Assembly: GCA_012974315.1 (NCBI GenBank)
Contig: JAAXQI010000085.1
Location: 1-37,210, forward strand
DNA from: Desulfobacterales bacterium
GTDB lineage: Bacteria; Desulfobacterota; Desulfobulbia; Desulfobulbales; BM004
Direction: 5' to 3'
Length of the DNA stretch: 37,210 bases
Shown: positions 2,095 through 25,860 of the stretch, piece by piece
Layout: the number at the start of each line of letters is the position of its first letter
Numbering within the stretch: the first letter of the stretch is position 1
Position numbers and translations under genes: made by a program
The notes under the pieces: model-generated
Told to the model about the DNA's origin: nothing
The model's database searches: none
The model's input: the letters and a program-made list of their open reading frames with translations, nothing else

Positions 2095-3264
2095 ATGCCG
2101 ATTCTTTTTCAGAATAACTTTCAGCACGCATTCCCCCGTGTTAACGAATTGCAAGTTTCAAAAACCGCGGAGTTTCTCCTTGCATTGGCAGGAAGATCTG
2201 ATGCGGAATTGAGTATTCTGCTTGTTGATGACCAGCATATTGCCGAGTTAAATAAAACCTGGCGCCGCAAAAGTGGACCAACCAATGTGCTGTCCTTTTC
2301 ATTAACAGAAGGTGAAGATTTGACAAGGGCCGGGAATTTACTTGGCGATATTGTTATTTCTGTTGATACTGCTGCACGGGAAGCCAGAAAAGAGAGGATT
2401 TCAGTCCATCAGCGTTTAAACGTACTGCTTGTTCATGGCCTTCTGCACCTTCTTGGTTATGACCATGAGAAGTCAGACTCTGAAGCGGAAAGAATGTTTA
2501 GAAAGGAAAGGGAACTTTTACTTGAGTTAAAAAGAAAAAGGAGAGAAGAAATGATAAGACTCGCAGTGAATGTTGATCATGTGGCAACCTTACGTCAGGC
2601 CCGTGGCATCAGCGAGCCTGATCCTGTACTTGCCGCAGGTATCTGTGAACTTGCAGGAGCTGAAGGCATTGTGGTGCACCTGCGTGAGGATAGAAGGCAT
2701 ATCCAGGATAGAGATGTCTTGATACTGCGGCAGACGGTTAAGACCAAACTCAATCTGGAAATGGGGGCTACTCAGGAGATTATAAAATTTGCTCTGAAGC
2801 TTAAGCCGGATATGGTGACCCTTGTTCCTGAAAAAAGGCAGGAGTTGACGACTGAAGGAGGCTTAAATGTTGCCGGGCAAAAAAAGAAGCTAAAAAATGT
2901 TATTTCCCAGATGAATGATAGCGGTATTCCGGTAAGTTTGTTTATTGATCCTGATTCGCGGCAGATTGAGGCATCCCATAATATTGGAGCCACCTTTGTC
3001 GAAATCCATACTGGCAGGTACAGTGATGCAACAAGTGAAGAGGAAACTGAGCAGGAATTTGAACTGATTGTTGCTGCTGCAGAAGAGGCATATGAAGCAG
3101 GCCTGCGGGTGAATGCCGGGCATGGTCTTAACTATGTCAATACAACCCGGGTTGCATCACTTGATACAATTGAAGAGTTGAGCATAGGCCATGCTGTTAT
3201 GGCACGCGCAATTTTTGTTGGACTTGACCAGGCGGTTCGGGAAATGCTTGGCCTTATGATGTAA
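2095..3264 (+). CDS. Fusion of endoribonuclease YbeY (aa 1-~150) with pyridoxine 5'-phosphate synthase PdxJ (aa 153-389)
   Basis: YbeY zinc motif [11 protein letters not shown]. After ...KRKRREE comes a complete PdxJ: [63 protein letters not shown]. One uninterrupted frame. An internal AAGGAGAG SD lies 6 nt upstream of the in-frame ATG at 2551. Confidence 0.85.
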
Positions 3265-12616: not shown

Positions 12617-13765
12617 TTAGAAAGCTAAAATCTTTCCAGTAGCAGTATCCAGCCTGTTTTTTAAGAGTTTCATGCACGCATTGATAATAGTGTCAGTGGC
12701 TTCCGGTCTTGCAACCTTGCCAGAGTTGTCAGCCATTTCAGCAAGTAGTTTTTTATCTTCCAGGACCCGTTTTATCTCCATGCCAAGTTTATCACCAGTC
12801 AGATCTGCCTGCCTGAACATGAGGCCGGCTCCGGCTTCAACCAGATACTGTCCGTTGATTTCCTGATGATTATCAGCAGCAAATGGAAAAGGGATCAGGA
12901 TTACAGGTTTATGAAAGACTGTAAGCTCTGCAAGGGTTGTGGCCCCAGCTCTTGAAATTATGAGATCAGCTTGTGAGTAAATCTCTGCCATATCACTGAA
13001 AAAATCCTGGACTCTGGCGTTGAGTCCAAGCTCTACATATTTTCTTTGGACATGGTCTTTATCGTGTCCACCTGTCTGGTGAATTATGAAAGGTGGAGGT
13101 GAAAGTTTGCTCAAAATGTTTTCAGCGGCCTCAAGCATGAGGCTGTTCAAACGTCTTGCTCCCTGGCTGCCACCTAAAATAAGCAGGGTTGAAGATTCCT
13201 GGCCGGATTCAGGCTTAGCTTCTCTGGAAACTTTGAGAATTGTGTTCCGTACCGGGTTTCCGCTTAAGATGGTTTTGCTGGCAGGGAAATATTTCTCACT
13301 GCCAGGCAGAGAAACAAAAATTTTATTGGCGATGTAGCCCAGCAGTTTATTCGCCAGTCCCGGTATGGAGTTCTGCTCATGAATACAGGTGGTGACGCCT
13401 AACAGGCGTGCTGCAAGAATCACTGGTCCTGTTACATAACCGCCCACTCCAAATACAAGGTCTGGTTTGAATCTTCGTATAATCCCGGCTGCTTCCCATA
13501 AGGCCAAAGGTTGTTGGAACAGAGCCTTGAGAACGGCAAAAAAACTTTTTCCTTTAATCCCCTGACTTTTAATCGATCTGGTTGCAAAACCAAGATTAGA
13601 CAGGGCAGTTTTGTCAATTTTCCTTTCGGTGCCGATAAACAGTACCTCACAGCCTGGATCGGCTAGCATCATTGCCTGGGCCAGAGATATTCCAGGGAAA
13701 AGATGTCCACCGGTTCCACCTCCAGTTACGATTAGTCGTATATGCCGTGTAGTCTCTTCTTTCAT
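12617..13765 (-). CDS. murG: Undecaprenyldiphospho-muramoylpentapeptide beta-N-acetylglucosaminyltransferase MurG
   Basis: G-loop TGGGTGGHLFPGISLA and C-terminal ISRAGATTLAEL. Its ATG (13763-13765) is 1 nt from the murD stop (13767-13769). Confidence 0.9.
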   Translation of the reverse strand: MKEETTRHIRLIVTGGGTGGHLFPGISLAQAMMLADPGCEVLFIGTERKIDKTALSNLGFATRSIKSQGIKGKSFFAVLKALFQQPLALWEAAGIIRRFKPDLVFGVGGYVTGPVILAARLLGVTTCIHEQNSIPGLANKLLGYIANKIFVSLPGSEKYFPASKTILSGNPVRNTILKVSREAKPESGQESSTLLILGGSQGARRLNSLMLEAAENILSKLSPPPFIIHQTGGHDKDHVQRKYVELGLNARVQDFFSDMAEIYSQADLIISRAGATTLAELTVFHKPVILIPFPFAADNHQEINGQYLVEAGAGLMFRQADLTGDKLGMEIKRVLEDKKLLAEMADNSGKVARPEATDTIINACMKLLKNRLDTATGKILAF

Positions 13766-13766
13766 A

Positions 13767-15227
13767 TTAATGGAATAATAATTCCTCTACATTGCAGGCA
13801 GTGTTATTCTTTATGGCTAGAACAGAATTCCTGAAAACCGCTCCTCGTTCGGCATAGCTTGAAAACATGTCAAAACTGGCACAGGCAGGAGATAATAAAA
13901 CAGCATCACCTGGGACTGCAAGATTTGCCGCTCTGCAAACTGCCTCCTGGAGAGTGTCCAATGTCTCAACATTGGTAAAAGCTAAAAAGGCACGGGTCAT
14001 CTTGTCCCTGGCTTCGCCAATGAGCAATATATGCTTAACCTTTTGGCGAACTGCTTCTGAAAGGATTGAATAATCTCCACCCTTGTCCCTTCCTCCGGCA
14101 ATGAGAATAATAGGCTGATTTATGGCTCCAATGGCAGAGTAGACTGCTCCGACATTGGTTGCCTTTGAGTCGTCTACATAGCTAACGCCGTTAATTTCAG
14201 CCACCAGAGACATTCGGTGTTCAAGGGGTTTGAAGGAAGCAAGGCCCTTGAGAATATTCTGCTGTTGACATCCCATTAACCGGGCCGCAAGAATTGCAGC
14301 AGCAGCGTTTTGCAGATTAGGAGAATTTCTTAAATCTGTATTGGCCAAATCATATTCCTCGCCATGCATGTTGTCTGGCAGGGAGGAATCGCTGCTGTTT
14401 TTCAGGGTAATTTTTTCACCATGTATTGTTGCGCCGGCAAGAGCAGCAAGATCTTTGCCAAAAAAGAATTTGCGGCTTTCAGGCCATAAGTGTTTACGGT
14501 TCATAATTTCAATGTCGTCAGCATTAAGAACTGCGAAATCATCGGGACTCTGGGCTGCAAAAATCTTGAATTTGGAATCTACATAAGCTGAAAACGAGGT
14601 ATATCGTTCCAGGTGGTCTGGGCTGATATTGAGCAGGATAGCTGTTTTGAAAGATAGACCGTTTTTGCCGCCACCGGTATCCAGTTGAAAACTGCTGATC
14701 TCTGCAGCAACAATATCAGCAGTCTGGGCTCCTGATACATATTCTAAAAGCGGGGTGCCAATATTGCCGCCGACAAAAACATTTTGAAAACTGGCCTGGA
14801 AAATATTACCCAGGATGGTTGTCACTGTGGTCTTGCCATTGGTGCCAGTTATCCCAACGACAGGGGTTTTCAGGTAATGTGCTATTATTGCAAGTTCTCC
14901 TGTTACTGGTATGGAACAGCGTCTGGCTTCAACAAGTGGTTCAATGGAAAGAGGGATTCCCGGGCTGACAAAAATACAATCAACTGATGTGAACATTTCG
15001 ATGGAGTGACCACCGGTTTCGCAGGTAATATTATTCTCTTCAAACCAGGCTATAATTTCTGGATCCAGAGTTCCTTTGGATGATGAATCAGATACGGAGA
15101 CAGTGGCACCATGCTTGAGGAAAAATTTGACGGCAGCCATACCTGTTTTACCCAGGCCGACGACAAGAATAGTCATGCCTGTTTTGATATAGTTGCCGGT
15201 GTCTGTATTTGTTATCGAAGTTGCCAT
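13767..15227 (-). CDS. murD: UDP-N-acetylmuramoylalanine--D-glutamate ligase MurD
   Basis: VGLGKTGMA Rossmann block, P-loop [13 protein letters not shown], and NISPDHLERY. The true start may be the internal MTILVVGLGKTG. Confidence 0.9.
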   Translation of the reverse strand: MATSITNTDTGNYIKTGMTILVVGLGKTGMAAVKFFLKHGATVSVSDSSSKGTLDPEIIAWFEENNITCETGGHSIEMFTSVDCIFVSPGIPLSIEPLVEARRCSIPVTGELAIIAHYLKTPVVGITGTNGKTTVTTILGNIFQASFQNVFVGGNIGTPLLEYVSGAQTADIVAAEISSFQLDTGGGKNGLSFKTAILLNISPDHLERYTSFSAYVDSKFKIFAAQSPDDFAVLNADDIEIMNRKHLWPESRKFFFGKDLAALAGATIHGEKITLKNSSDSSLPDNMHGEEYDLANTDLRNSPNLQNAAAAILAARLMGCQQQNILKGLASFKPLEHRMSLVAEINGVSYVDDSKATNVGAVYSAIGAINQPIILIAGGRDKGGDYSILSEAVRQKVKHILLIGEARDKMTRAFLAFTNVETLDTLQEAVCRAANLAVPGDAVLLSPACASFDMFSSYAERGAVFRNSVLAIKNNTACNVEELLFH

Positions 15228-16340: not shown

Positions 16341-19300
16341 TTAGTTGCCCCTGCCTGAATATTGTTTTGAATCTTGCTTGAGTAACGCAAGAATTTCTTC
16401 CATGCGCATACCTCTGGATCCCTTAATGAGAAGCCAGTCATCCGCTTTTATTTTATTTTCCTGCATAAGTTGATTCAGCCAAAGAACCAGATCTTTTTTA
16501 CTGTCAAATCCTCTGGCCGCTTCCTGGTCCATGCCGGCATCCCATGCACTTGTAACCATGTTCTGTGCCTGGCTGCCGAATACAGCCAGAAAATCTATAC
16601 CCAGTTCAAAAACTGTTTTTCCTAAAGCCTGGTGGGCATCATCACTTTTAGTTCCCAACTCCAGCATGTCACCGAGAATTGCTACAGCGCGCTGGCCTTT
16701 TTTAAGATCCTGCAGTGTGGTGAGTGCGGCCATCATCGATGCAGGATTGGCATTGTAGCAGTCATTAAGTACCTGTATTCCTGATTCCAGTTTTTCTATA
16801 CAGGTTCGCTTCTCATAGGGCATGAAAGCTGAGAGTCCTGTCGAGATTTCATCGATATCAATGTTGACACCATGAGCCATAGCTGCTGCTGCAAGGCTGT
16901 TTGTTACATTATGTTTGCCAATGCCCTTGATAGCTATTTGCCTGCTCTCATTGCCTATATGTAAAGTATAGGACATTCCCTCCCGTCCGAGGCTTTTGAT
17001 GTTCGTCGCCCGAACAAATGCATCGGGACAGGATCCAAACGTGATTTTTTCCTGTGTGAGTTGGGCAGCAAGCGAGCGGACAATTTCGTCATCAAGGTTG
17101 ACAACAGCTTTGCCCGCAGGTTTCAGACCGGCGAAGAGTTCATTTTTAGCCTTTGCCACACCTTGAATATCACCGAGACCCTCAAGGTGCGCCTCTTGAA
17201 CATTGATGATACAGGCAATATCAGGATCAGCGATCTCTGTTAAACGTGCAATTTCTCCTGGGCGATTCATCCCCATTTCGAGAACAGTCATTGTATGATC
17301 TTCCCTAAGGTTCAACAGGGTGAGTGGCATGCCGATCAAATTGTTAAAATTACCCTCGGTTTTTAAAATAGAGTGTTTCTGGCTGAGTATTGAACCAATC
17401 ATCTCTTTTACCGTGGTTTTGCCGGAACTCCCTGTCATGGCAAGGACCTGCAGGTCATTATTCCATCTACGCCTGTTTGCAGCCAGTTCACCCAAGGCCA
17501 AGAGGGTATCAGGCACAAGCAGCACAGGTATTGTCGGTTGAAAATCTAATGGTTCATTTTCCTTGCCAGAGGCCTGGTTGATGAGAAGCCCAGCTGCTCC
17601 ATTTTGGGCTGCTTTTTTGGCAAACAACCTGCCGTCAAAGTTTTCACCTTGCAGAGCAATAAAGAGATCACCTGGATTTATTGAGCGCGAATCTGTTGAA
17701 ATGTTATTAAAGAGAGTTTCCCTGTCTGCAGGATAGAGTAATTGTCCACCGGTAATCTGCTGGAGCCAATCAAGTTTCCAAAAATGCGGTAGACCAGCTG
17801 CAGCCTGCAACTGCATATCTGCCTCAATGCGATCATCGAAGAAAATTTTACCTTCTCTGCTTAATTGGTAGTTTTCATGTCCTTTGCCGCTGATAAGAAT
17901 GACGTCTTCCGGATTGGCAAAACGGATGGCAGTGCTGATTGCCACTCGCCGGCTTGTGAAAATATCGTATCCTGCCCCATTTTCTTTGGAGAGCATTTTC
18001 CAGGCAGGAATCTTATTAAGAGGAGACTTTAAAATTCCCTCTTCAACCTGCTCAAGTATTTTTTGCGGTGACTCAGAACGGGGATTATCCGAGGTGGCCA
18101 GTACAACGTCACTTAATGTGCCTGCGATCTCTCCCATAAGAACTCTTTTCCCGGAATCCCGATCCCCGCCGCATCCGAAGATGCAAATAAGCCGCTTGGA
18201 ATTAAGCTTTCTGAGAGCGTCTAAAACATTTTCCAGGGCATCAGGAGTGTGGGCGTAATCGATAAAAACAGTGGGGGTGTTTTCTGTACAAACTGCCTTG
18301 CTGTTTTTCCCAACAGATATTTTTTCGAGCCGGCCGGGAATAGTTTTTACATTCTCAACACCTTTTTGAATGCAGCCTAATTCATCTTTATGAACGATGC
18401 CTATGCCAATTGCGCAAAGTATATTGCGCAGGTTGAACTCTCCGACGAGTGGGCTTGTAAGGTGCAGAGACCCTGATGGTGAAATGATTTCAGCTTTAAT
18501 GCCGTGAATATCTATGTTGAAGTCCTGTGGGCGCACATCACATTCGTTGTTTAATCCATAAGTAATAATTGAGGGGGAATCTTCTCTGGCCTGGTACAAA
18601 GTCTTAAGTTCGTCCTGAAGCTGTTTGCCCCAGTTAGTTTTTTCTGTTCGTGAATCGGTACTCTCTCCTGACAGTGAAGGACTTTCATCAAGCATAATAA
18701 CTACCTGCCCCCCGGGTTTCAGGTAATCGGTGAATAACCGTTTTTTGCTTGAAAAGTATTGATCCATATCACGGTGAAAATCTAAATGATCCCTGCTTAA
18801 ATTCGTAAAGACCGCTATATCAAAAACCATTCCCGTAAGTCTCGCCTGAGCCAACGCATGTGAGGAGACTTCCATAACGACATCTGTAATTCCTTCATCT
18901 GCCATTTGACGGAGCAAAGCAAAGAGGGTATGGGATTCAGGTGTTGTAAATGGGGCTTCCATTTCAATATATGTGTCACTCCTGTTACTATACCGATAAT
19001 TAATTGTTCCAATAACACCTGGTCTTTTTCCACATGCTTTTAAAAACGCCTCAACCAGAAAAGATGTGGTTGTTTTGCCGTTAGTCCCGGTAATGCCGAT
19101 CACAGTAAGTTGCCGGTCCGGGTGGTCATAGAATGCAGCTGCAATATCACCCAGGGCAATTTTTGTATCATTTACTTCAACAAGTGGGATCTGCCCTACA
19201 TTTTCCGTTTCTGCTGCCAGGCTTTGCCAACCGTGATTCACCAACAGGGCGGAACAGCCAGCGGCAACAGCCTGATTCAAATAGTTGTGACCATCAACAG

Positions 19301-19460
19301 ATAAACCCTGAATGGCTGCAAAAAGGTTTCCGGGTTGAACCTTTCTGGAATCTGAAGAAAGTCCGGTAATTTCAGTTCTGCCTATATCCCCAGAAATCCT
19401 GCAATCAACTCCTTCAAGCAAATTTCTTAATTGTTTTGTTGCTGTAGTTAAAGTTGACAT
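16341..19460 (-). CDS. Fused MurE (meso-DAP-adding ligase, aa 1-~545) and MurF (D-Ala-D-Ala-adding ligase, aa ~549-1039)
   Basis: MurE part: [37 protein letters not shown] (DNPR, mDAP type), GKGHENYQ. MurF part: [44 protein letters not shown]. One continuous 1039-codon frame. In-frame ATG at 17814-17816 preceded by GAGG 5 nt upstream. Confidence 0.9.
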
Positions 19461-19506
19461 TATTTGTTCTCAGAAAACTGGCTGTTTATTTTTTGTGAAA
19501 AGGCAT

Positions 19507-21471
19507 TCATATTTCATGCTGTAATTCAAGAGTACATTCGCTAACATTGATCAGTTCGGTCCCGGCAAGTGGTTGTTGAGATACAATTCGGCCACTCCCC
19601 ACAAGTTTTACATCCATATTAAAATGCTGAAGAACCTGTAGCCCGGCACGTAGACTTTTCCCGGTAATATCAGGCATGTTTTTCTTAAGATTGTCTGACA
19701 GTGCTGCAGGATCATCTTTTTCAAATGAATGGGAAGCCGAGTTATTTGCAGACCTTGTCCCTTCATTGTCCCAGAAATCCTGGGAAGGGGTTGGCGGGGA
19801 CATGGCAGCGACATGAAGCATTGTTCTAATCATGTCCTCATCCGGGCTAAGGATTGAGAATTTATTTCCAAAAGCTGCCAATGTATCAGGAGAGACTCTG
19901 TCACAGCTGTCTGGATAAGAAAGGACAGCTATCATGGTCAGTTCAGGCTTTTCTCCTGGTATGGCACCGATCATAATACTTTGGGAAAGATACGGGGTTT
20001 GATCAGTTAGATCCTCTTTTTCAGGTGTTGCATAGTTATGCGCCTCGAAAAACATTGGAGTGTCTGATTTTCTGCCCTTTCTGCCAAGCTTCAACCATTT
20101 TGTTGCAAGGAAATCATTTAAGTCTTTGGTCGTGTTGGGGTTAAGGACAACCTTTTGCTCAGTTGCATTTAAAGTTGTCTCAAATGGAGTGGTGATGCCC
20201 TTCTGGTAAGCCTTGTACAGCAAATGCGGAGTGACAAGTCTGCCTCCATTTACCAGGGTTGTAAAGCCATTTAAAAGTCTCATGGCAGAAGAACTGAAAG
20301 ATGGGTTAATAATAAGGGAGGATGAGACGGGTGTTTCGTCTTTAAGCGGCAAATCTGCCAGAGGCTTTTGGCCAAAGCCCAATAATTGCGTAAACTCGGC
20401 AAGGTAAACCGGATCGATATCATCGACCCGGGGAGCAACCGACAATTTTCTTCTTTTTTGTTTATCCGGAGCGAGAACAGTTACAGGGTTTGATTCATCT
20501 AAATTTACAAAAGATCCAGACTTTTTTTCATTTTTTAAATTGAAGGCTGCAGCCTGTTGAAAAATAAGGGCCAGTTCTCCAGGATAAACTGGTTCAGTCA
20601 GAGCATGATTACTGAGTGCAGAACTGGAGAACTCCCAATAGCTGTTCGGGTTGAACGAAGGAAAACTCGCCAGGGCAAGAACTGCGCCTGTATTTGCGTT
20701 CATCAGGATAATCGTACCACTGGAGGCTCCAGTAATTTTCATCCTTTTATCAAGGAAGCGCTCAATTTTCGACTGGATCATCAGGTCAAGATTTAACACC
20801 AGGTGCGTGCTGGAACCGCCAAACTCTGTTTCAGGGGCATAGTTCAGCGTTTTAAGTTCTGCGCTACTTATTTCATCTCCCCGCAGTAAGGAATTATATT
20901 GAAACTCAATACCATCAAGTCCCTGGCCATTCTCGACAAATCCCACCACATGTGCAGCTTTTTTAAAGTTTGGGTAAAAGCGTTTTGTCTCGACAACCTG
21001 ATAAACACCTTTCATATTGCGCTGCTTTATAGCGTCTGCTTTTTCATGATCAATTTTTTGGGCAACCCAGATAAACCCTCGTTCACTTTTCAAGTTTGGT
21101 AAAAGTTTGCTTTTTTCCAGTCCTAGAATTTCAGCAAGTATGGCTGCAGAAGAATCAGGATCTTCCATTTCCAGGGGACGTGCATAAATGGCATAGGTTT
21201 TATATGCGGATGTAAGGGGCCTGAAGTTCCGATCATATATATCTCCTCTGATAGAGGAGGGGGGGGGAGTGGAAGCTATTACTTCTCCGGGATGGTTTTG
21301 TTGAATCCAGCTAAAAACTTCGTTGAGGGTATATAACTTGTCTTTATGAAACAATAAGGCCCCGGATCCCAAAAACAGAACAAGGGCCAGGAGGAGAAGG
21401 CGCACTTTCCTTCTTTTCTCTGCCAGTAATTTCCGTCGTCTCCTGACGTGTGTTTTAGCGTGCTCAGTCAT
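19507..21471 (-). CDS. FtsI/PBP3-like class-B penicillin-binding-protein homologue with degenerate transpeptidase motifs and a C-terminal PASTA-like module
   Basis: N-terminal TM segment. PBP dimerisation-domain blocks (RGDIYDRNFRPL, RFYPNFKKAAHVVGF, GLDGIEFQYNSLL). Transpeptidase scaffold blocks retained (PSFNPN, LLGFGQKPLADLPLKDE, LVNGGRLVTPHLL, IGAIPGEKPELTMIAVL). The SxxK position reads PGELAL (nt 20566-20580), and no SxN or KTG is found in the expected context. C-terminal module MPDITGKSLRAGLQVLQHFNMDVKLVGSGRIVSQQP. Confidence 0.8.
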   Translation of the reverse strand: MTEHAKTHVRRRRKLLAEKRRKVRLLLLALVLFLGSGALLFHKDKLYTLNEVFSWIQQNHPGEVIASTPPPSSIRGDIYDRNFRPLTSAYKTYAIYARPLEMEDPDSSAAILAEILGLEKSKLLPNLKSERGFIWVAQKIDHEKADAIKQRNMKGVYQVVETKRFYPNFKKAAHVVGFVENGQGLDGIEFQYNSLLRGDEISSAELKTLNYAPETEFGGSSTHLVLNLDLMIQSKIERFLDKRMKITGASSGTIILMNANTGAVLALASFPSFNPNSYWEFSSSALSNHALTEPVYPGELALIFQQAAAFNLKNEKKSGSFVNLDESNPVTVLAPDKQKRRKLSVAPRVDDIDPVYLAEFTQLLGFGQKPLADLPLKDETPVSSSLIINPSFSSSAMRLLNGFTTLVNGGRLVTPHLLYKAYQKGITTPFETTLNATEQKVVLNPNTTKDLNDFLATKWLKLGRKGRKSDTPMFFEAHNYATPEKEDLTDQTPYLSQSIMIGAIPGEKPELTMIAVLSYPDSCDRVSPDTLAAFGNKFSILSPDEDMIRTMLHVAAMSPPTPSQDFWDNEGTRSANNSASHSFEKDDPAALSDNLKKNMPDITGKSLRAGLQVLQHFNMDVKLVGSGRIVSQQPLAGTELINVSECTLELQHEI

Positions 21472-21480
21472 TTAGCATTA

Positions 21481-21681
21481 CTATCTCCGCAATGTTGATG
21501 CATTAAGTTTTAGTTGATTAAATATGTCCTTCTGTCCTGTACTTGCAACCATAATGAGCTCGACAACCTTCAAAGAATCGGCATTCAGATCGTCAAAGAA
21601 AGATGTGCCGGGCATGACCTTGTCCTTATCACCACTTGACTGTTCAACAATGAAATCATTCAGTATCTCGTTTGTTGACAT
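21481..21681 (-). CDS. Small acyl-carrier-protein-like ORF (66 aa) with a DSL phosphopantetheine-attachment-type motif
   Basis: MSTNEILNDFIVEQSSGDKDKVMPGTSFFDDLNADSLKVVELIMVAS... lines up by eye with the ACP helix I-II pattern (..I...L......V....SF..[8 protein letters not shown].VELVM). GAGGAG SD lies 8 nt upstream of the ATG at 21679-21681. Tightly packed between ftsL and the ftsI-like gene. The C-terminal part is shorter than canonical ACP. Confidence 0.5.
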   Translation of the reverse strand: MSTNEILNDFIVEQSSGDKDKVMPGTSFFDDLNADSLKVVELIMVASTGQKDIFNQLKLNASTLRR

Positions 21682-21730
21682 ATTCAATTCTCCTCAAGTA
21701 TTTTGAATTCCGTTAGTGTTCTAAGTTTAA

Positions 21731-22099
21731 TTATGGATAGCGGAGTTGGCTTTTAGTGGGAAAGTACAGCCCGATTCCCTCGGCAGCTTTCTCTATATGT
21801 TCCTGGGTCAGCATCAAATCACGTTGAGCAATCAGTATCCTGTTTTCGCTCGCCAACTCAGTATTGGTTATTTTGTTGCTGCCTATTTGATCAAGAGCTA
21901 ATTGAACCTGCCAGCCGTACCAGATAGTTGAAGTAATACCAATAACGACGGTTATAAGAAGCATTGCCCCGAGTGCTTTCCACATGAGCATGGTTACAGA
22001 AAAGAAATCCCTGGACGTTGTGGCTGCCTTTTTTTTGGGAGATTTTTTTTTGTTCCTGCAATTTATTGCGACATAGGTGCCAGAATAATCATTAACCAT
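21731..22099 (-). CDS. ftsL: Cell division protein FtsL
   Basis: Bitopic protein: basic N-terminus, TM segment ALGAMLLITVVIGITSTIWYGW, then a heptad-rich region and C-terminal IEKAAEGIGLYFPTKSQL typical of FtsL. Conserved slot after rsmH. Start placed at ATG 22097-22099, which has GGAGGAGAG upstream (the longest ORF starts at TTG 22123). Confidence 0.7.
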   Translation of the reverse strand: MVNDYSGTYVAINCRNKKKSPKKKAATTSRDFFSVTMLMWKALGAMLLITVVIGITSTIWYGWQVQLALDQIGSNKITNTELASENRILIAQRDLMLTQEHIEKAAEGIGLYFPTKSQLRYP

Positions 22100-22119
22100 T
22101 TTGACTCTCCTCCCTTTGA

Positions 22120-23079
22120 TCAACCTTTCATGTAAGCTGCCCGAAGTTTTGCGCTTCTTGAACGAGGATTCATCTTGATCTCCTCGTCACTCGCGGTTAC
22201 GGGTTTTTTAGTTAAAATTTCCAGTAATGAATTGTCTCTGAATTTCCACTTGACCAATCGGTCTTCCAGGGAATGAAATGTAATAATGCAGACCCTGCCT
22301 CCCGGTGTAAGAATTTTCGTGATGAAATCGAGTATTGCTGTCAGATTGTCAAGCTCTTCATTGACGGCAATTCGTAGAGCCTGAAATACCTTTGTGGCTA
22401 CATGGATTTTTCGGGGGTGGAATTTTTTGGGAATAGAACTGGAAACAATATGAGCAAGATGCGAGGTCGTGCTAATATATTCTTTCTTTCTCTCTTCAAC
22501 TATATGTGATGCGATACGTCGGGCCTGTCTTTCTTCGCCAAAGTAATAAAAAATATCTGCTAAATCATCTTTGCTGAAGTTGTTAATTATTTTTTCTGCA
22601 GTAGAATGTCGTCGCCTGTCCATCCGCATATCAAGTGGGCCGTCTGCCTGAAAACTGAATCCTCTTGTTTCGTTGTCAAACTGAAGTGAGGAAACGCCGA
22701 GATCCAAAAGCACCCCGTCAACTTTTTGAATACCCATTTCAGTTAATCCGTCCATAATTTCTGAGTAACTCCTGTGCTGAGCTGAAAAACGCTGGCCAAA
22801 AGGTGAGAGTCTCTTTGTGGCCAGTTCCAAAGCATTGGCGTCCCATTCAAAGCCAATGACCTGGCCGGAGGGACTGCATAATTGCAGAATTTTTTCAGAA
22901 TGTCCCCCAAGACCGAGGGTGCCGTCAACATATATCCCGCCATCAACCGGGGCCAGAAGCTGAGTAGCTTCATCGAGAAGAACGGGAATGTGGATTGGTG
23001 GGGATGTTTTGGGGTCAGAGGATTTGGCCATGGGGGGGCAAGGATTTTTCTTAGGAATAATTTCCCCCTCATGAGTCAC
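22120..23079 (-). CDS. rsmH: 16S rRNA (cytosine1402-N4)-methyltransferase RsmH (MraW)
   Basis: HIPVLLDE, VDGTLGLGGHS, LLDLGVSSLQFD, SLEDRLVK, RSRSAKLRA. The longest ORF starts at GTG 23079. An alternative ATG at 23029-23031 (MAKSS...) is equally plausible. Confidence 0.9.
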   Translation of the reverse strand: MTHEGEIIPKKNPCPPMAKSSDPKTSPPIHIPVLLDEATQLLAPVDGGIYVDGTLGLGGHSEKILQLCSPSGQVIGFEWDANALELATKRLSPFGQRFSAQHRSYSEIMDGLTEMGIQKVDGVLLDLGVSSLQFDNETRGFSFQADGPLDMRMDRRRHSTAEKIINNFSKDDLADIFYYFGEERQARRIASHIVEERKKEYISTTSHLAHIVSSSIPKKFHPRKIHVATKVFQALRIAVNEELDNLTAILDFITKILTPGGRVCIITFHSLEDRLVKWKFRDNSLLEILTKKPVTASDEEIKMNPRSRSAKLRAAYMKG

Positions 23080-23093
23080 GGTATTCCCTTTTC

Positions 23094-23573
23094 TTAAAGT
23101 ATGCCCAGGGCGGATAGGCTCTGTTCAAAATCGCTGAATTTGTCTCTGGTCAGCTTTCTTTCCTTTTCCCATGCAGCTTTATCCCAAATTTCGAAGTGAT
23201 CAAGCATGCCATTCAGCACCACATCTTTTTTCAAATCAAAATCCGTCCGTAATGTTGGCGGCAGGAGGATTCTGCTTTGTTTGTCAAGGGAGCAGTCAGT
23301 AACACCGGAAATAACATAGCGCATGAAAGAATCCATTCCGGGTTGCTTCTTACCCTGAACAAGCAGGGTAGTTTCGATCTGTTCCCAGATTTTTGCAGGA
23401 AACGCCTTTAAGCATTTATGCCAGTTGGTGACCATTAAGTTTTCCTGGTAATGGTCCTGAAGCACATCCCGAAACCTGCTCGGAATATTAAGCCTCCCCT
23501 TACTGTCCAGCGTATGCTCTGAACGGCTGCGAAATCTGTTTGTCGATGCTTTGCTGTTGCTTGATTTGGGCAT
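23094..23573 (-). CDS. mraZ: Transcriptional regulator MraZ
   Basis: Duplicated SpoVT/AbrB-like halves, DSKGRLNIPSRFR and DKQSRILLPPTLR. First gene of the dcw cluster. Confidence 0.95.
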   Translation of the reverse strand: MPKSSNSKASTNRFRSRSEHTLDSKGRLNIPSRFRDVLQDHYQENLMVTNWHKCLKAFPAKIWEQIETTLLVQGKKQPGMDSFMRYVISGVTDCSLDKQSRILLPPTLRTDFDLKKDVVLNGMLDHFEIWDKAAWEKERKLTRDKFSDFEQSLSALGIL

Positions 23574-23577
23574 GAGC

Positions 23578-23617
23578 CCACCCCTTTGTTCCCTTTTGTC
23601 CCACTTTACACCACTAG
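23578..23617 (-). promoter_or_regulatory. Four tandem 10-bp MraZ-box-like direct repeats (putative MraZ operator) between promoter and mraZ ATG
   Basis: Read 5'->3' on the - strand: CTAGTGGTGT / AAAGTGGGAC / AAAAGGGAAC / AAAGGGGTGG, then GCTC ATG. Exact 10-bp phasing of a GTGG/GGGA core. The proximal unit overlaps the likely RBS. Confidence 0.55.
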
Positions 23618-23625
23618 GGGTATCT

Positions 23626-23653
23626 TTTATAAGAAAACTCCGCCCTGTGTCAA
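23626..23653 (-). promoter_or_regulatory. Putative sigma70-type dcw promoter (Pmra equivalent)
   Basis: On the - strand: TTGACA (23648-23653), 16-nt spacer, TATAAA (23626-23631), about 55 nt upstream of the mraZ ATG and immediately upstream of the repeat array. Confidence 0.55.
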
Positions 23654-23853
23654 GGAAAAACTAATAAAAAATGAACTGGTAGTAGGGAGGGTGACTCGAC
23701 GTTATCTCTTGAAACAGACAATCTATACATTATGTTGTGTGACGTCTTATTGCAGACCACAATATGATGTGGTTTGCCTGTTTTGGGACAAATGAGTTTT
23801 TTTGTACGGAATCTGTTAGTGGAAAAGATGCTTTTGGGCAGAACCGGGTAGGG

Positions 23854-23877
23854 ATGGAATGGAGTCTACCATTCCAT
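23854..23877 (-). other. 9-bp perfect stem-loop overlapping the stop codon of the RNase II/R-family gene (possible attenuator/insulator before the dcw promoter)
   Basis: ATGGAATGG (23854-23862) / CCATTCCAT (23869-23877) with a 6-nt loop. No U-tract follows it on the - strand, so it is not a canonical intrinsic terminator. Confidence 0.3.
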
Positions 23878-25860
23878 TTTTAAAATATTGCTTAAGGCGC
23901 TTACTTTGGACAGTTTAATCAGAACAGTATCCCCGGCAGAAACTTTGAAGGCCTGGTTAAACGGCAGGTCAACGTCAAGCAGGAATTCTTCCAGAAAGAG
24001 ATGTACGCGTTTTGGACCATGGTTGATAACAGTGGCAGGAAGTCTTTCACCTGCCTTTGCTTCCAGATATTTTAATATCCAATAGCGCTGGCGTTGATTT
24101 TTGACCTGGTTGGCTTTATCAAGGGTTGTGAGAATAATGGATCCAAAATGCTTCATGTCTTTTTTGCTGAAAAAAACTCCCTGACCTATGAGCAGGTTGC
24201 TGATCTGAAGCTGCATGATCAGGTCCAGAAGACGTCGGATGGGAGATGTGACGGTGGTGTATTGTGGTGCACCAACACCGCTATGGATTTTGGGGGTAGT
24301 TAACAGGCACATTGGAGATAAGCGTTTCCGCTGCTGAATAACCTTGGTTATATCTTTTTCGAAGCCGTCGATAATTCTTTGGCGGGGTTCCATCTGGCAG
24401 CGGAATAAGCCTGGCGCTTCCCTGTCAGCCACGAACTGGGCTCCAAGCGTATTTGCCAGAATCATGAACTCAGCGATAAGAATTTTGCTGGGTGTGTCAA
24501 CAGCAGATGTATTTATCTCAATGGTGCCATCAGGCTTTATCCTGATATTTAATTCCGGCACGGGCAAGAGTAAGGCCCCATTATTTACCCGTCTTTGCCG
24601 CAGTAACTTACTCAGTGCAGCCAGGAAAGCCAGCTCCTGGTCCTGATTAATTAACCCGTTCGCCTCGTCATAGGTCAACTGTCGTTTCACCGAAATAATA
24701 CTATGGACCATTTCGTATTTGAGAACCTCTGCAGTGGGGCTAAGCAACACTAATAAACTTACGGCTGGACGTACCTGGTCTTTGAGAAGGCTTAATTTGT
24801 CCTCTGACAGGGGAGCGGGGAGCATTGAGATAGGGTTTTCAGGAAAATATAGAGAAGTTCCCCTTTTAAGTGCTTCATCAAAGAGAGCGGTTCCCGGTTT
24901 TACAAAAAGGCCCACATCTGAAATATGAATGCCGACAAGATAGTTCACACCCTGTTTTTCAATGTGAAGTGCATCATCGAAATCCCTGGTTGTGGGACCG
25001 TCAATGGTCAAAACAGGCAAATCCCTGAAGTCTTTTCTTCCAGCATCAGATAAATCTTTTACAGAGGGCAATTCGATTTCTTTAACTTCAGCGAGGACAG
25101 CTTCGGAAAAAATTGTTGGGATATCTTTCTTAAGAAGGGGGATGTTTTCATTTTTATCCCAGACTCCGGCTTTGACCAATAGGTGAAAGATATCATGTGG
25201 CCCTGTCAGTTGAGCGCTTTTGGTAAGCTTACGTGCCAGTTCATGTTGAGGAGCCTCATTGTCAAAAAGATAGTAATCCTGGAGTATCTGCAAAGTTGTC
25301 GTTCCCTCCTCCCAATTGGCAGGAATCTTCCCCTCTTTCCAGATTTGACGCAGGGCTAAAGTGTTTTTGGTAATAAAAAACTCCTCCTGTTTTTCTTTCT
25401 CCTGCATAAATTTTATCTGCTCAACGGTTTCAGGTGAATGAACATGGATATTGCCTGTTTTGTATTTGAAATAAAGTCGGTCAGCGATTACAGATCGAAG
25501 GAAAGCGGCGGCTTGGTCGTCCGTGGGGTCGTCACCAAAAAATAAACTTGCCAGGAAATTAACCTCGTAGCTCTCTTCAGGTTTTTCAGAGACAAGTCCC
25601 CAAATCTCATCAAGATTAATTGTTTGTGCCAGTCCTTCTCTCTGTTTTGAGGTTTCCTGCAGGGATGAAATGATCTCCTCTCTGGAGTGTTTAGCAGAGA
25701 TTTTCTCTTTGGTGAAGTGGACAATTCTATTGAGCGGCAAATTGAGTTCTCTGCTGTTCTGATTAAGCAATCGAAGCCGGTTTCCATTATCATCGAATAC
25801 AAAAGCACAGATGAATTTGCCGTTTTCCAGATATTCAATTATCCTGCCGTCTAGTGTCAT
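23866..25860 (-). CDS. RNB-domain exoribonuclease (RNase II / RNase R family)
   Basis: RNB catalytic motifs TIDGPTTRDFDDALHIE, HISDV and TSPIRRLLDL. C-terminal S1-like beta region. Confidence 0.85.
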   Translation of the reverse strand: MTLDGRIIEYLENGKFICAFVFDDNGNRLRLLNQNSRELNLPLNRIVHFTKEKISAKHSREEIISSLQETSKQREGLAQTINLDEIWGLVSEKPEESYEVNFLASLFFGDDPTDDQAAAFLRSVIADRLYFKYKTGNIHVHSPETVEQIKFMQEKEKQEEFFITKNTLALRQIWKEGKIPANWEEGTTTLQILQDYYLFDNEAPQHELARKLTKSAQLTGPHDIFHLLVKAGVWDKNENIPLLKKDIPTIFSEAVLAEVKEIELPSVKDLSDAGRKDFRDLPVLTIDGPTTRDFDDALHIEKQGVNYLVGIHISDVGLFVKPGTALFDEALKRGTSLYFPENPISMLPAPLSEDKLSLLKDQVRPAVSLLVLLSPTAEVLKYEMVHSIISVKRQLTYDEANGLINQDQELAFLAALSKLLRQRRVNNGALLLPVPELNIRIKPDGTIEINTSAVDTPSKILIAEFMILANTLGAQFVADREAPGLFRCQMEPRQRIIDGFEKDITKVIQQRKRLSPMCLLTTPKIHSGVGAPQYTTVTSPIRRLLDLIMQLQISNLLIGQGVFFSKKDMKHFGSIILTTLDKANQVKNQRQRYWILKYLEAKAGERLPATVINHGPKRVHLFLEEFLLDVDLPFNQAFKVSAGDTVLIKLSKVSALSNILKMEW

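Follow-up and report, generated by a model that had tools for sequence, protein, structure and literature searches.

A conserved mini-gene at the ftsL-ftsI junction of uncultured Desulfobulbales-like bacteria is apparently derived from the N-terminal half of acyl carrier protein

PPTases attach the phosphopantetheine cofactor of acyl carrier protein (ACP) to a serine, and the contacts of ACP with its client enzymes are made by helix II. ACPs also bind proteins in structural, non-carrier roles: mitochondrial ACP binds LYR proteins in complex I and in the Fe-S cluster machinery, and E. coli ACP binds MukB, SpoT and IscS. Short helical DSL peptides can reportedly be substrates of Sfp-type PPTases, the ybbR tag (DSLEFIASKLA) being described as a helical DSL-hydrophobic peptide without the full ACP fold. 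A different kind of precedent comes from bacterial cell division, for which several small regulators of the divisome are known (MciZ, SidA, DidA and Blr), as are small ORFs that are translationally coupled inside dcw operons. In the literature searched, we found no ACP-like gene reported from a dcw cluster.

Here we describe such a gene, referred to as the mini-gene, in a contig of 37,210 nt from a Desulfobacterales bacterium (JAAXQI010000085.1, assembly GCA_012974315.1), which was analyzed at its full length and is called the window. As in the structural uses of ACP, its product would offer an ACP-type helix II surface for protein contacts outside fatty-acid synthesis; however, the proteins used in those systems are complete and usually holo or acylated ACPs, whereas the mini-protein is a truncated and re-tailed fragment encoded by a separate gene, with an attachment residue that is not conserved. 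Similar to MciZ, SidA, DidA and Blr, it is small, is encoded in or beside division genes and presumably acts by binding, but it has no sequence or fold relation to them, and most of them either are membrane peptides or bind FtsZ, and have known targets, whereas the mini-protein appears to be soluble and ACP-derived. Finally, peptides of the ybbR type are laboratory tags, whereas Thr variants at the corresponding Ser predominate in the mini-gene family. The mini-gene, its signals and its nearest neighbors are:

21481..21681, minus strand: coding sequence of the mini-gene, 66 codons plus TAG, with the ATG at 21681 (from the ORF list and the sequence)
21481-21483, minus strand: TAG stop codon of the mini-gene (read from the sequence)
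21690..21695, minus strand: Shine-Dalgarno (SD) sequence GAGGAG, 8 nt 5' of the mini-gene ATG (read directly)
21485..21488, minus strand: GGAG, presumed ribosome-binding site of the ftsI-like gene, within mini-gene codons 65-66 and 13 nt before the ftsI-like ATG (read directly)
21731..22123, minus strand: ftsL-like gene, the upstream neighbor, with a probable start Met at 22099 (122 aa) and a weak match to the FtsL model TIGR02209 (E 0.0033)
19507..21471, minus strand: ftsI-like gene, the downstream neighbor, encoding a class B PBP homologue with Pfam PBP_dimer, partial Transpeptidase and PASTA matches
16341-19460, minus strand: murE-murF fusion, an ORF of 1039 aa with two full sets of Mur ligase domains

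The 66-codon ORF reported in a first-pass annotation of these letters is present at 21481-21681 with the translation quoted there (MSTNEILNDFIVEQSSGDKDKVMPGTSFFDDLNADSLKVVELIMVASTGQKDIFNQLKLNASTLRR), and it lies on the minus strand, which that description had left unstated. The strong SD described at first pass can be read directly at 21690-21695, 8 nt from the ATG, and so can the 9-nt spacing between the mini-gene stop (21481-21483) and the ftsI-like ATG at 21471. The distance of 43 nt from ftsL has to be corrected, the true gap between the ftsL-like stop (21731) and the mini-gene ATG being 49 nt; the former value leads instead to an in-frame TTG at 21687, found in the ORF list. Since this TTG is only 2 nt from the SD, which is too near, and since all homologues begin with MS or MT, the ATG at 21681 is taken as the start. 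The SD is kept in relatives (their loci are numbered with the prefix L) as GAGGAG or AGGAG in L001, L004, L007 and L068 and as GGGAGG in L067. Around the mini-gene, the scanned region held no promoter-like or terminator-like site on the coding strand, every match lying on the non-coding strand, and there is thus no sign that the mini-gene is transcribed separately. An Rfam scan of positions 19000-24500 gave no RNA family match at E<=1. The mini-gene stop precedes the ftsI ATG by 9 nt in the window and by 17 nt in L067, and overlaps it as ATGA in the 70-aa variants of L007 and L068. Additionally, a four-codon ORF (21469-21482, minus strand; ATG CTA AAT GAC TGA) overlaps the ftsI start codon, and in L001, L032, L033 and L069 it reads ATG YTN CAT GAC TGA, being kept with or without the mini-gene; its conservation may just be that of the ftsI initiation region.

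The surrounding cluster runs entirely on the minus strand in the order mraZ, rsmH, ftsL-like, mini-gene, ftsI-like, murE-murF fusion, mraY, murD, murG, murC, murB, ftsQ, ftsA and ftsZ, and the ftsL-like gene follows rsmH in all relatives. ftsW is absent between murD and murG, the latter directly following the former (12617-15227, minus strand, with the junction at 13765-13767), and ddl is absent between murB and ftsQ in this cluster. The murE-murF fusion is shared by L001-L007, L033, L034 and L067-L071 and is split in the outgroup L035; in L032 the gene calls are one of 838 aa and, after it, a separate Mur_ligase_C gene of 213 aa. Beyond the cluster, the window encodes ftsEX, envC-like, ctpA-like, RNase II, era, ileS, lspA and other genes. 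The ftsI-like product carries 'YPGELAL' where class B PBPs have 'EPGSxxK' (Ser to Glu and Lys to Leu) and has no KTG at the expected position, and its alignment to solved PBP3 structures ends just before the active site. Among 98 FtsI homologues checked, about 80 have this PGEL-type substitution and none has SxxK at this position; the more distant homologues, one of the cultured Desulfogranum marinum among them, lack SxxK as well. Judged by these motifs, the FtsI homologue encoded in the dcw cluster looks catalytically dead. In a study of cable bacteria, ftsW was found to be missing from four Desulfobulbaceae genomes (PMC7873302).

Within the mini-gene, four segments can be told apart:

21544..21675, minus strand: ACP-homologous segment, codons 3-46, covering helix I, the loop and the first two-thirds of helix II (hhalign, PDB and NCBIfam)
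21574..21576, minus strand: codon 36 (TCT, Ser), aligned to the DSL serine of ACP, the phosphopantetheine-attachment position
21508..21603, minus strand: conserved core, codons 27-58, with the pattern SF[LF]DxL..[ST]LxxVELIMxx[SG]TGQKDIxxQLK (column entropy, dN/dS and AF2)
21484..21543, minus strand: new C-terminal tail, codons 47-66, without ACP similarity, the last codons entering the ftsI translation-initiation region

The ACP-like pattern noticed by eye in the N-terminal part at first pass is significant by profile comparison. When the alignment of the mini-gene family was compared with an ACP alignment by hhalign, residues 3-46 paired with ACP residues 3-46 (probability 98.7%, E 1.8e-16). 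A family profile run against the PDB found 87 ACP chains at E<=1 (best E 3e-10), covering query residues 1-45 and ending by about residue 45-47. Similarly, six NCBIfam ACP models aligned residues 4-46 with ACP positions of about 5-51 at E-values from 7.5e-11 to 3.4e-05, and five further NCBIfam ACP models matched more weakly. Even the best of these models gave 41.7 bits vs a cut-off of 71, the scores falling far under the cut-offs because only half of each ACP model is matched. The Pfam search proposed at first pass came out negative, PF00550 (PP-binding) giving the window mini-protein a sub-threshold 12.8 bits vs a gathering score of 20.8 (E 0.15); across the family, 33 of 74 members matched PF00550 at E<=1 (best 5.2e-05), and no member has a precomputed Pfam match. 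On this profile evidence, residues 3-46 represent a bona fide N-terminal half of ACP, the similarity being one of descent and not of mimicry or motif coincidence.

The homology stops in the middle of helix II, leaving the ACP fold truncated. The first-pass annotation had called the C-terminus unlike helices III-IV, and indeed neither hhalign nor an ACP profile run against three-frame translations extends past residue 46, the PDB matches ending at about the same place. In the three-frame search of six mini-gene loci, only the N-terminal half was found, in the known frame, and helices III-IV were absent; because no frame yields more than this half, a frameshifted full-length acpP is ruled out. 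Set beside AcpP (PF00550, TIGR00517), to whose helix I, loop and helix II, including the DSL position, residues 3-46 are homologous, the mini-protein differs in having only 66 aa, with an unrelated 20-residue tail in place of helices III-IV; in its location in the dcw operon and not beside fab or pls genes; in its Ser, which is not conserved and is replaced by Thr in most lineages; in its variable Asp35; and in scores below the family cut-offs. What it shares with ACPs is thus partial sequence homology, whereas cut-off scores, the full four-helix fold, an invariant Ser and partner genes are all missing. Accordingly, the mini-gene is not filed here as an ACP and, going by its sequence, is best described as representing a new small-protein family derived from ACP. 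Sources label some members 'acyl carrier protein' and others 'hypothetical', and the former label is wrong.

Searches of protein collections gave a family of about 75 clusters (at 90% identity) with lengths of 62-81 aa, including homologues of 66-70 aa in the same frame. The named source organisms are uncultured Desulfobulbaceae or Thermodesulfobacteriota MAGs, and the clade that has the mini-gene is uncultured and Desulfobulbales-like. In all 12 mini-gene-carrying loci inspected (the window, L001-L007, L038, L039, L067 and L068), the mini-gene sits at the junction between ftsL and ftsI, and this position holds in L067 despite an FtsI only 57-59% identical to that of the window and saturated synonymous sites. 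Thus, the first-pass question of whether the ORF and its frame are kept in relatives, with a dN/dS away from 1, receives a positive answer: length and frame are kept, and dN/dS is well below 1. For the whole mini-gene, dN/dS (Nei-Gojobori) is 0.21-0.46, compared with 0.20-0.31 for ftsL and 0.15-0.20 for ftsI; it is similar to that of ftsL except in the closest pairs, which have very few differences, and somewhat higher than that of ftsI. The constraint is distributed unevenly. In the core (codons 27-32 plus 36-58), dN/dS is 0.05-0.34, with pS up to 0.94 vs pN of about 0.2, and Fisher p-values run from 4e-9 to 0.02 in 14 of 15 pairs, the closest pair (window-L004) not being significant (p 0.17). 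Codons 2-26, the former helix I, are near neutral, with dN/dS of 0.28-1.3 in 13 of the 14 computable pairs. Mean column entropy follows a related course, being 2.0 bits for residues 1-26, 0.96 for 27-45, 1.38 for 46-58 and 2.19 for 59-66. These substitution patterns show purifying selection on the peptide, focused on helix II plus the new tail. Separately, the window mini-gene differs from those of L001 and L004 by about 10% of nucleotides (dS 0.19-0.25), whereas ftsI, ftsL and rsmH differ by about 3% (dS 0.02-0.07); this difference may reflect either a locally raised rate or recombination.

Structure prediction outlines the same unit. With 18 sequences, AF2 placed helices at residues 3-16, 28-31, 34-48 and 52-65 (mean pLDDT 70.9), whereas with 74 diverse sequences only 28-31, 34-48 and 53-64 were confident (pLDDT 82-90) and the N-terminus fell to a pLDDT of about 52. 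In the core, the prediction has a short helix followed by helix II, then a turn that contains Gly, and lastly a new helix; the confident unit is a helix-turn-helix hairpin and not an ACP bundle, the confidence of the models being moderate. The first-pass annotation had suggested looking for a three- or four-helix bundle; the four-helix ACP bundle is not predicted, helix I is not confident with 74 sequences, and neither AF2 model had a Foldseek match in the PDB at E<=10, ACPs included. The mini-protein reads as acidic in its first half and basic at its end, and has neither a hydrophobic segment of membrane-spanning length nor, by eye, a signal peptide, which suggests a soluble, cytoplasmic protein. 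The core and tail (LIMVASTGQKDIFNQLKLNAS) also match 16 ankyrin repeats (TPVMLAALYGQKDVFDLLVSNAADL) of P0139, a eukaryote-like ankyrin-repeat protein of 1563 aa in the representative library, at E 9e-21; this strong match was rejected as a homologue, being probably a helix-turn-helix look-alike multiplied by repeats.

The distribution of the mini-gene was followed on a neighbor-joining tree of 91 FtsI homologues, rooted on a group of 30% identity, whose tips were labeled for the mini-gene by locus inspection and by cross-matching the FtsI and mini-gene match lists. A basal clade (L034, L071) has no mini-gene, the next clade carries divergent Thr-type copies (L067 and relatives), and two sister clades follow, one with the mini-gene (window, L007, L068) and one without it (L032, L033, L069, L070). 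One gain and one loss would be the simplest history, which is provisional because the tree carries no support values. Since the sister clade without the mini-gene has the same dcw layout, the gene is dispensable in close relatives. In loci without it, the ftsL-ftsI spacer measures 51-102 nt (9 nt in the outgroup L035). Empty spacers of about 100 nt, globally aligned to the mini-gene, score z = 2-3.7 above shuffles, mostly owing to the ftsI leader; an ACP profile run against three-frame translations of six empty spacers found no ACP C-terminal half; and small ORFs occur in these spacers (of 27 aa in L032 and of 24 aa in L034) without being conserved. A block of the form GGAG/GGGG-TTTTAATG-CATGACTGA lies 5' of ftsI in loci with and without the mini-gene, and GGAG/GGGG-(T)TTTAATG-CATGACTGA is common to all loci except L035 and L071. 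This shared leader block takes in the last codons of the mini-gene, whose new tail thus ends in old ftsI leader sequence. Together, these comparisons are consistent with an origin in which a fragment covering about residues 1-46 of ACP came to rest between ftsL and ftsI in an ancestor of the Desulfobulbales-like clade, its reading frame continuing through some 20 new codons, the last of which fall within the ftsI ribosome-binding site or immediately before it.

Our preferred reading, whose chances we put at about even, is that the mini-gene is a domesticated ACP fragment that became a small cytoplasmic helix-turn-helix protein, probably coupled to ftsI, probably protein-binding and not a carrier. 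Selection would keep a unit of about 32 residues (27-58), consisting of the short helix, the former helix II, the Gly turn and the new amphipathic helix, and the product made from the dcw operon would be small, soluble and cytoplasmic. Its translation is probably coupled to that of the ftsI-like gene, and it would most likely act on a protein partner, which it would bind with the surface of the re-purposed helix II, probably without carrying an acyl or aminoacyl group. Because the junction position has been kept across deep divergence, the likeliest partner would be a product of the division and cell-wall cluster. A role in division or cell-wall synthesis is plausible from this conserved position; however, clades that have the mini-gene and clades that lack it do not differ obviously in the cytoplasmic tails of their FtsI homologues. 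A more specific version, which is possible but rather improbable, sees the captured fragment as a cytoplasmic subunit or regulator dedicated to an unusual divisome, one with a catalytically dead FtsI homologue at its center, in bacteria without FtsW in their dcw cluster.

The first-pass annotation had offered two options, a phosphopantetheinylated or aminoacyl carrier that supplies a cell-wall modification and a small divisome protein with no more than a look-alike motif; the relation to ACP stood and is one of descent, which disposes of motif mimicry, and the carrier function is poorly supported. Lineages that keep DSL, that of the window included, might still have a working carrier whose phosphopantetheinylated Ser bears an acyl or aminoacyl group for envelope modification: about half of the clusters, and the window copy with them, have D35-S36-L37 intact at the N-terminal end of the predicted helix II, the homology to ACP is clear and several sources name members 'acyl carrier protein', and, with ybbR-type peptides reported as PPTase substrates, the DSL-bearing copies may be modified. 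However, in a family set made non-redundant at 80%, position 36 is Thr in 13 of 21 members and Ser in 8, and position 35 is Asp in 11 of 21 and Ser, Ala, Gly, Asn or Glu in the other 10, so that neither the attachment Ser nor the neighboring Asp is conserved in the sequences of the family. Ser and Thr are both good helix N-caps, and the restriction of position 36 to these two residues can therefore be explained without a cofactor. Strong selection on the core is found also in the Thr lineages (L067 and L068), from which it follows that the conserved function cannot depend on phosphopantetheine. Moreover, helices III-IV, which complete the ACP bundle, are missing, the Pfam and NCBIfam cut-offs are missed, and the positions of ACP Asp38, Glu47 and Glu48 are Lys, Ser and Thr in the window copy (Lys or Glu, Ser or Gly, and Thr, respectively, in the family). 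The search for partners suggested at first pass was also negative within the 37-kb window, which encodes no PPTase, no adenylating enzyme (ligase) and no acyltransferase. A carrier role is thus unlikely as the conserved function of the family and was probably lost, and its survival in the DSL-keeping lineages seems quite unlikely. Only marginally less doubtful is a decoy function, in which helix II would occupy the ACP sites of lipid or lipid A enzymes or of AcpS and thereby tie membrane synthesis to division. The contact of this helix with ACP client enzymes and its rank as the best-conserved part of the mini-protein, along with co-expression with the division genes as judged by position, would fit such a role, but of the acidic helix II residues of ACP only Glu41 is kept, some members having Ala or Lys even there, and conservation of the new tail equals that of helix II, an indication that a new surface is involved.

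Two further readings take the peptide itself to be of no consequence, and both run against the selection analysis. Translation of the mini-gene could control that of ftsI, as for a regulatory upstream ORF, and the short ORF does end at the ftsI start (with its stop 9 nt or 17 nt before the ATG or overlapping it), the ftsI GGAG lying within its last codons at a long spacing of 13 nt. A peptide irrelevant in itself would be free to vary, whereas the core amino acids are kept while synonymous sites are nearly saturated, and the ftsI leader is the same in relatives that lack the ORF and manage without it; this account is very improbable, although translational coupling may exist on top of a peptide function. 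A decaying, functionless acpP pseudogene fragment would explain why only half of ACP is present, why the 26 N-terminal codons are nearly neutral and why the ORF was lost in one sister clade. It is hardly credible when about 75 clusters have preserved the frame and a length of 62-81 aa, when the strong SD is conserved, and when the core, at a dN/dS of 0.05-0.34 with p down to 4e-9, directly contradicts decay.

If the reading as a domesticated ACP fragment holds, the mini-gene would be a clean natural case of gene birth by partial gene capture, in which half of a highly conserved bacterial protein was re-tailed by read-through into a spacer and then long kept by selection for a function to which the active residue of ACP has become dispensable. 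Such domestication of a fragment at a highly conserved operon junction is apparently undescribed, and it is confined to an uncultured clade. The fixed place before a pseudo-transpeptidase FtsI, in a cluster without ftsW, makes the mini-gene a candidate part of a non-canonical division machinery; if the divisome-subunit reading were true, it would document how half of a housekeeping cofactor protein gave rise to a division factor.

Two minor observations concern other genes of the window. Within the ftsI-like gene, a run of nine G on the plus strand (21259-21267; C9 on the coding strand) encodes Pro-Pro-Pro, and L001 and L004 are one codon shorter there, making it a possible slippage site. At 2095-3264 on the plus strand, a 389-aa ORF joins a YbeY endoribonuclease (residues 26-144) to a PdxJ pyridoxine-phosphate synthase (residues 155-388), an unusual fusion.
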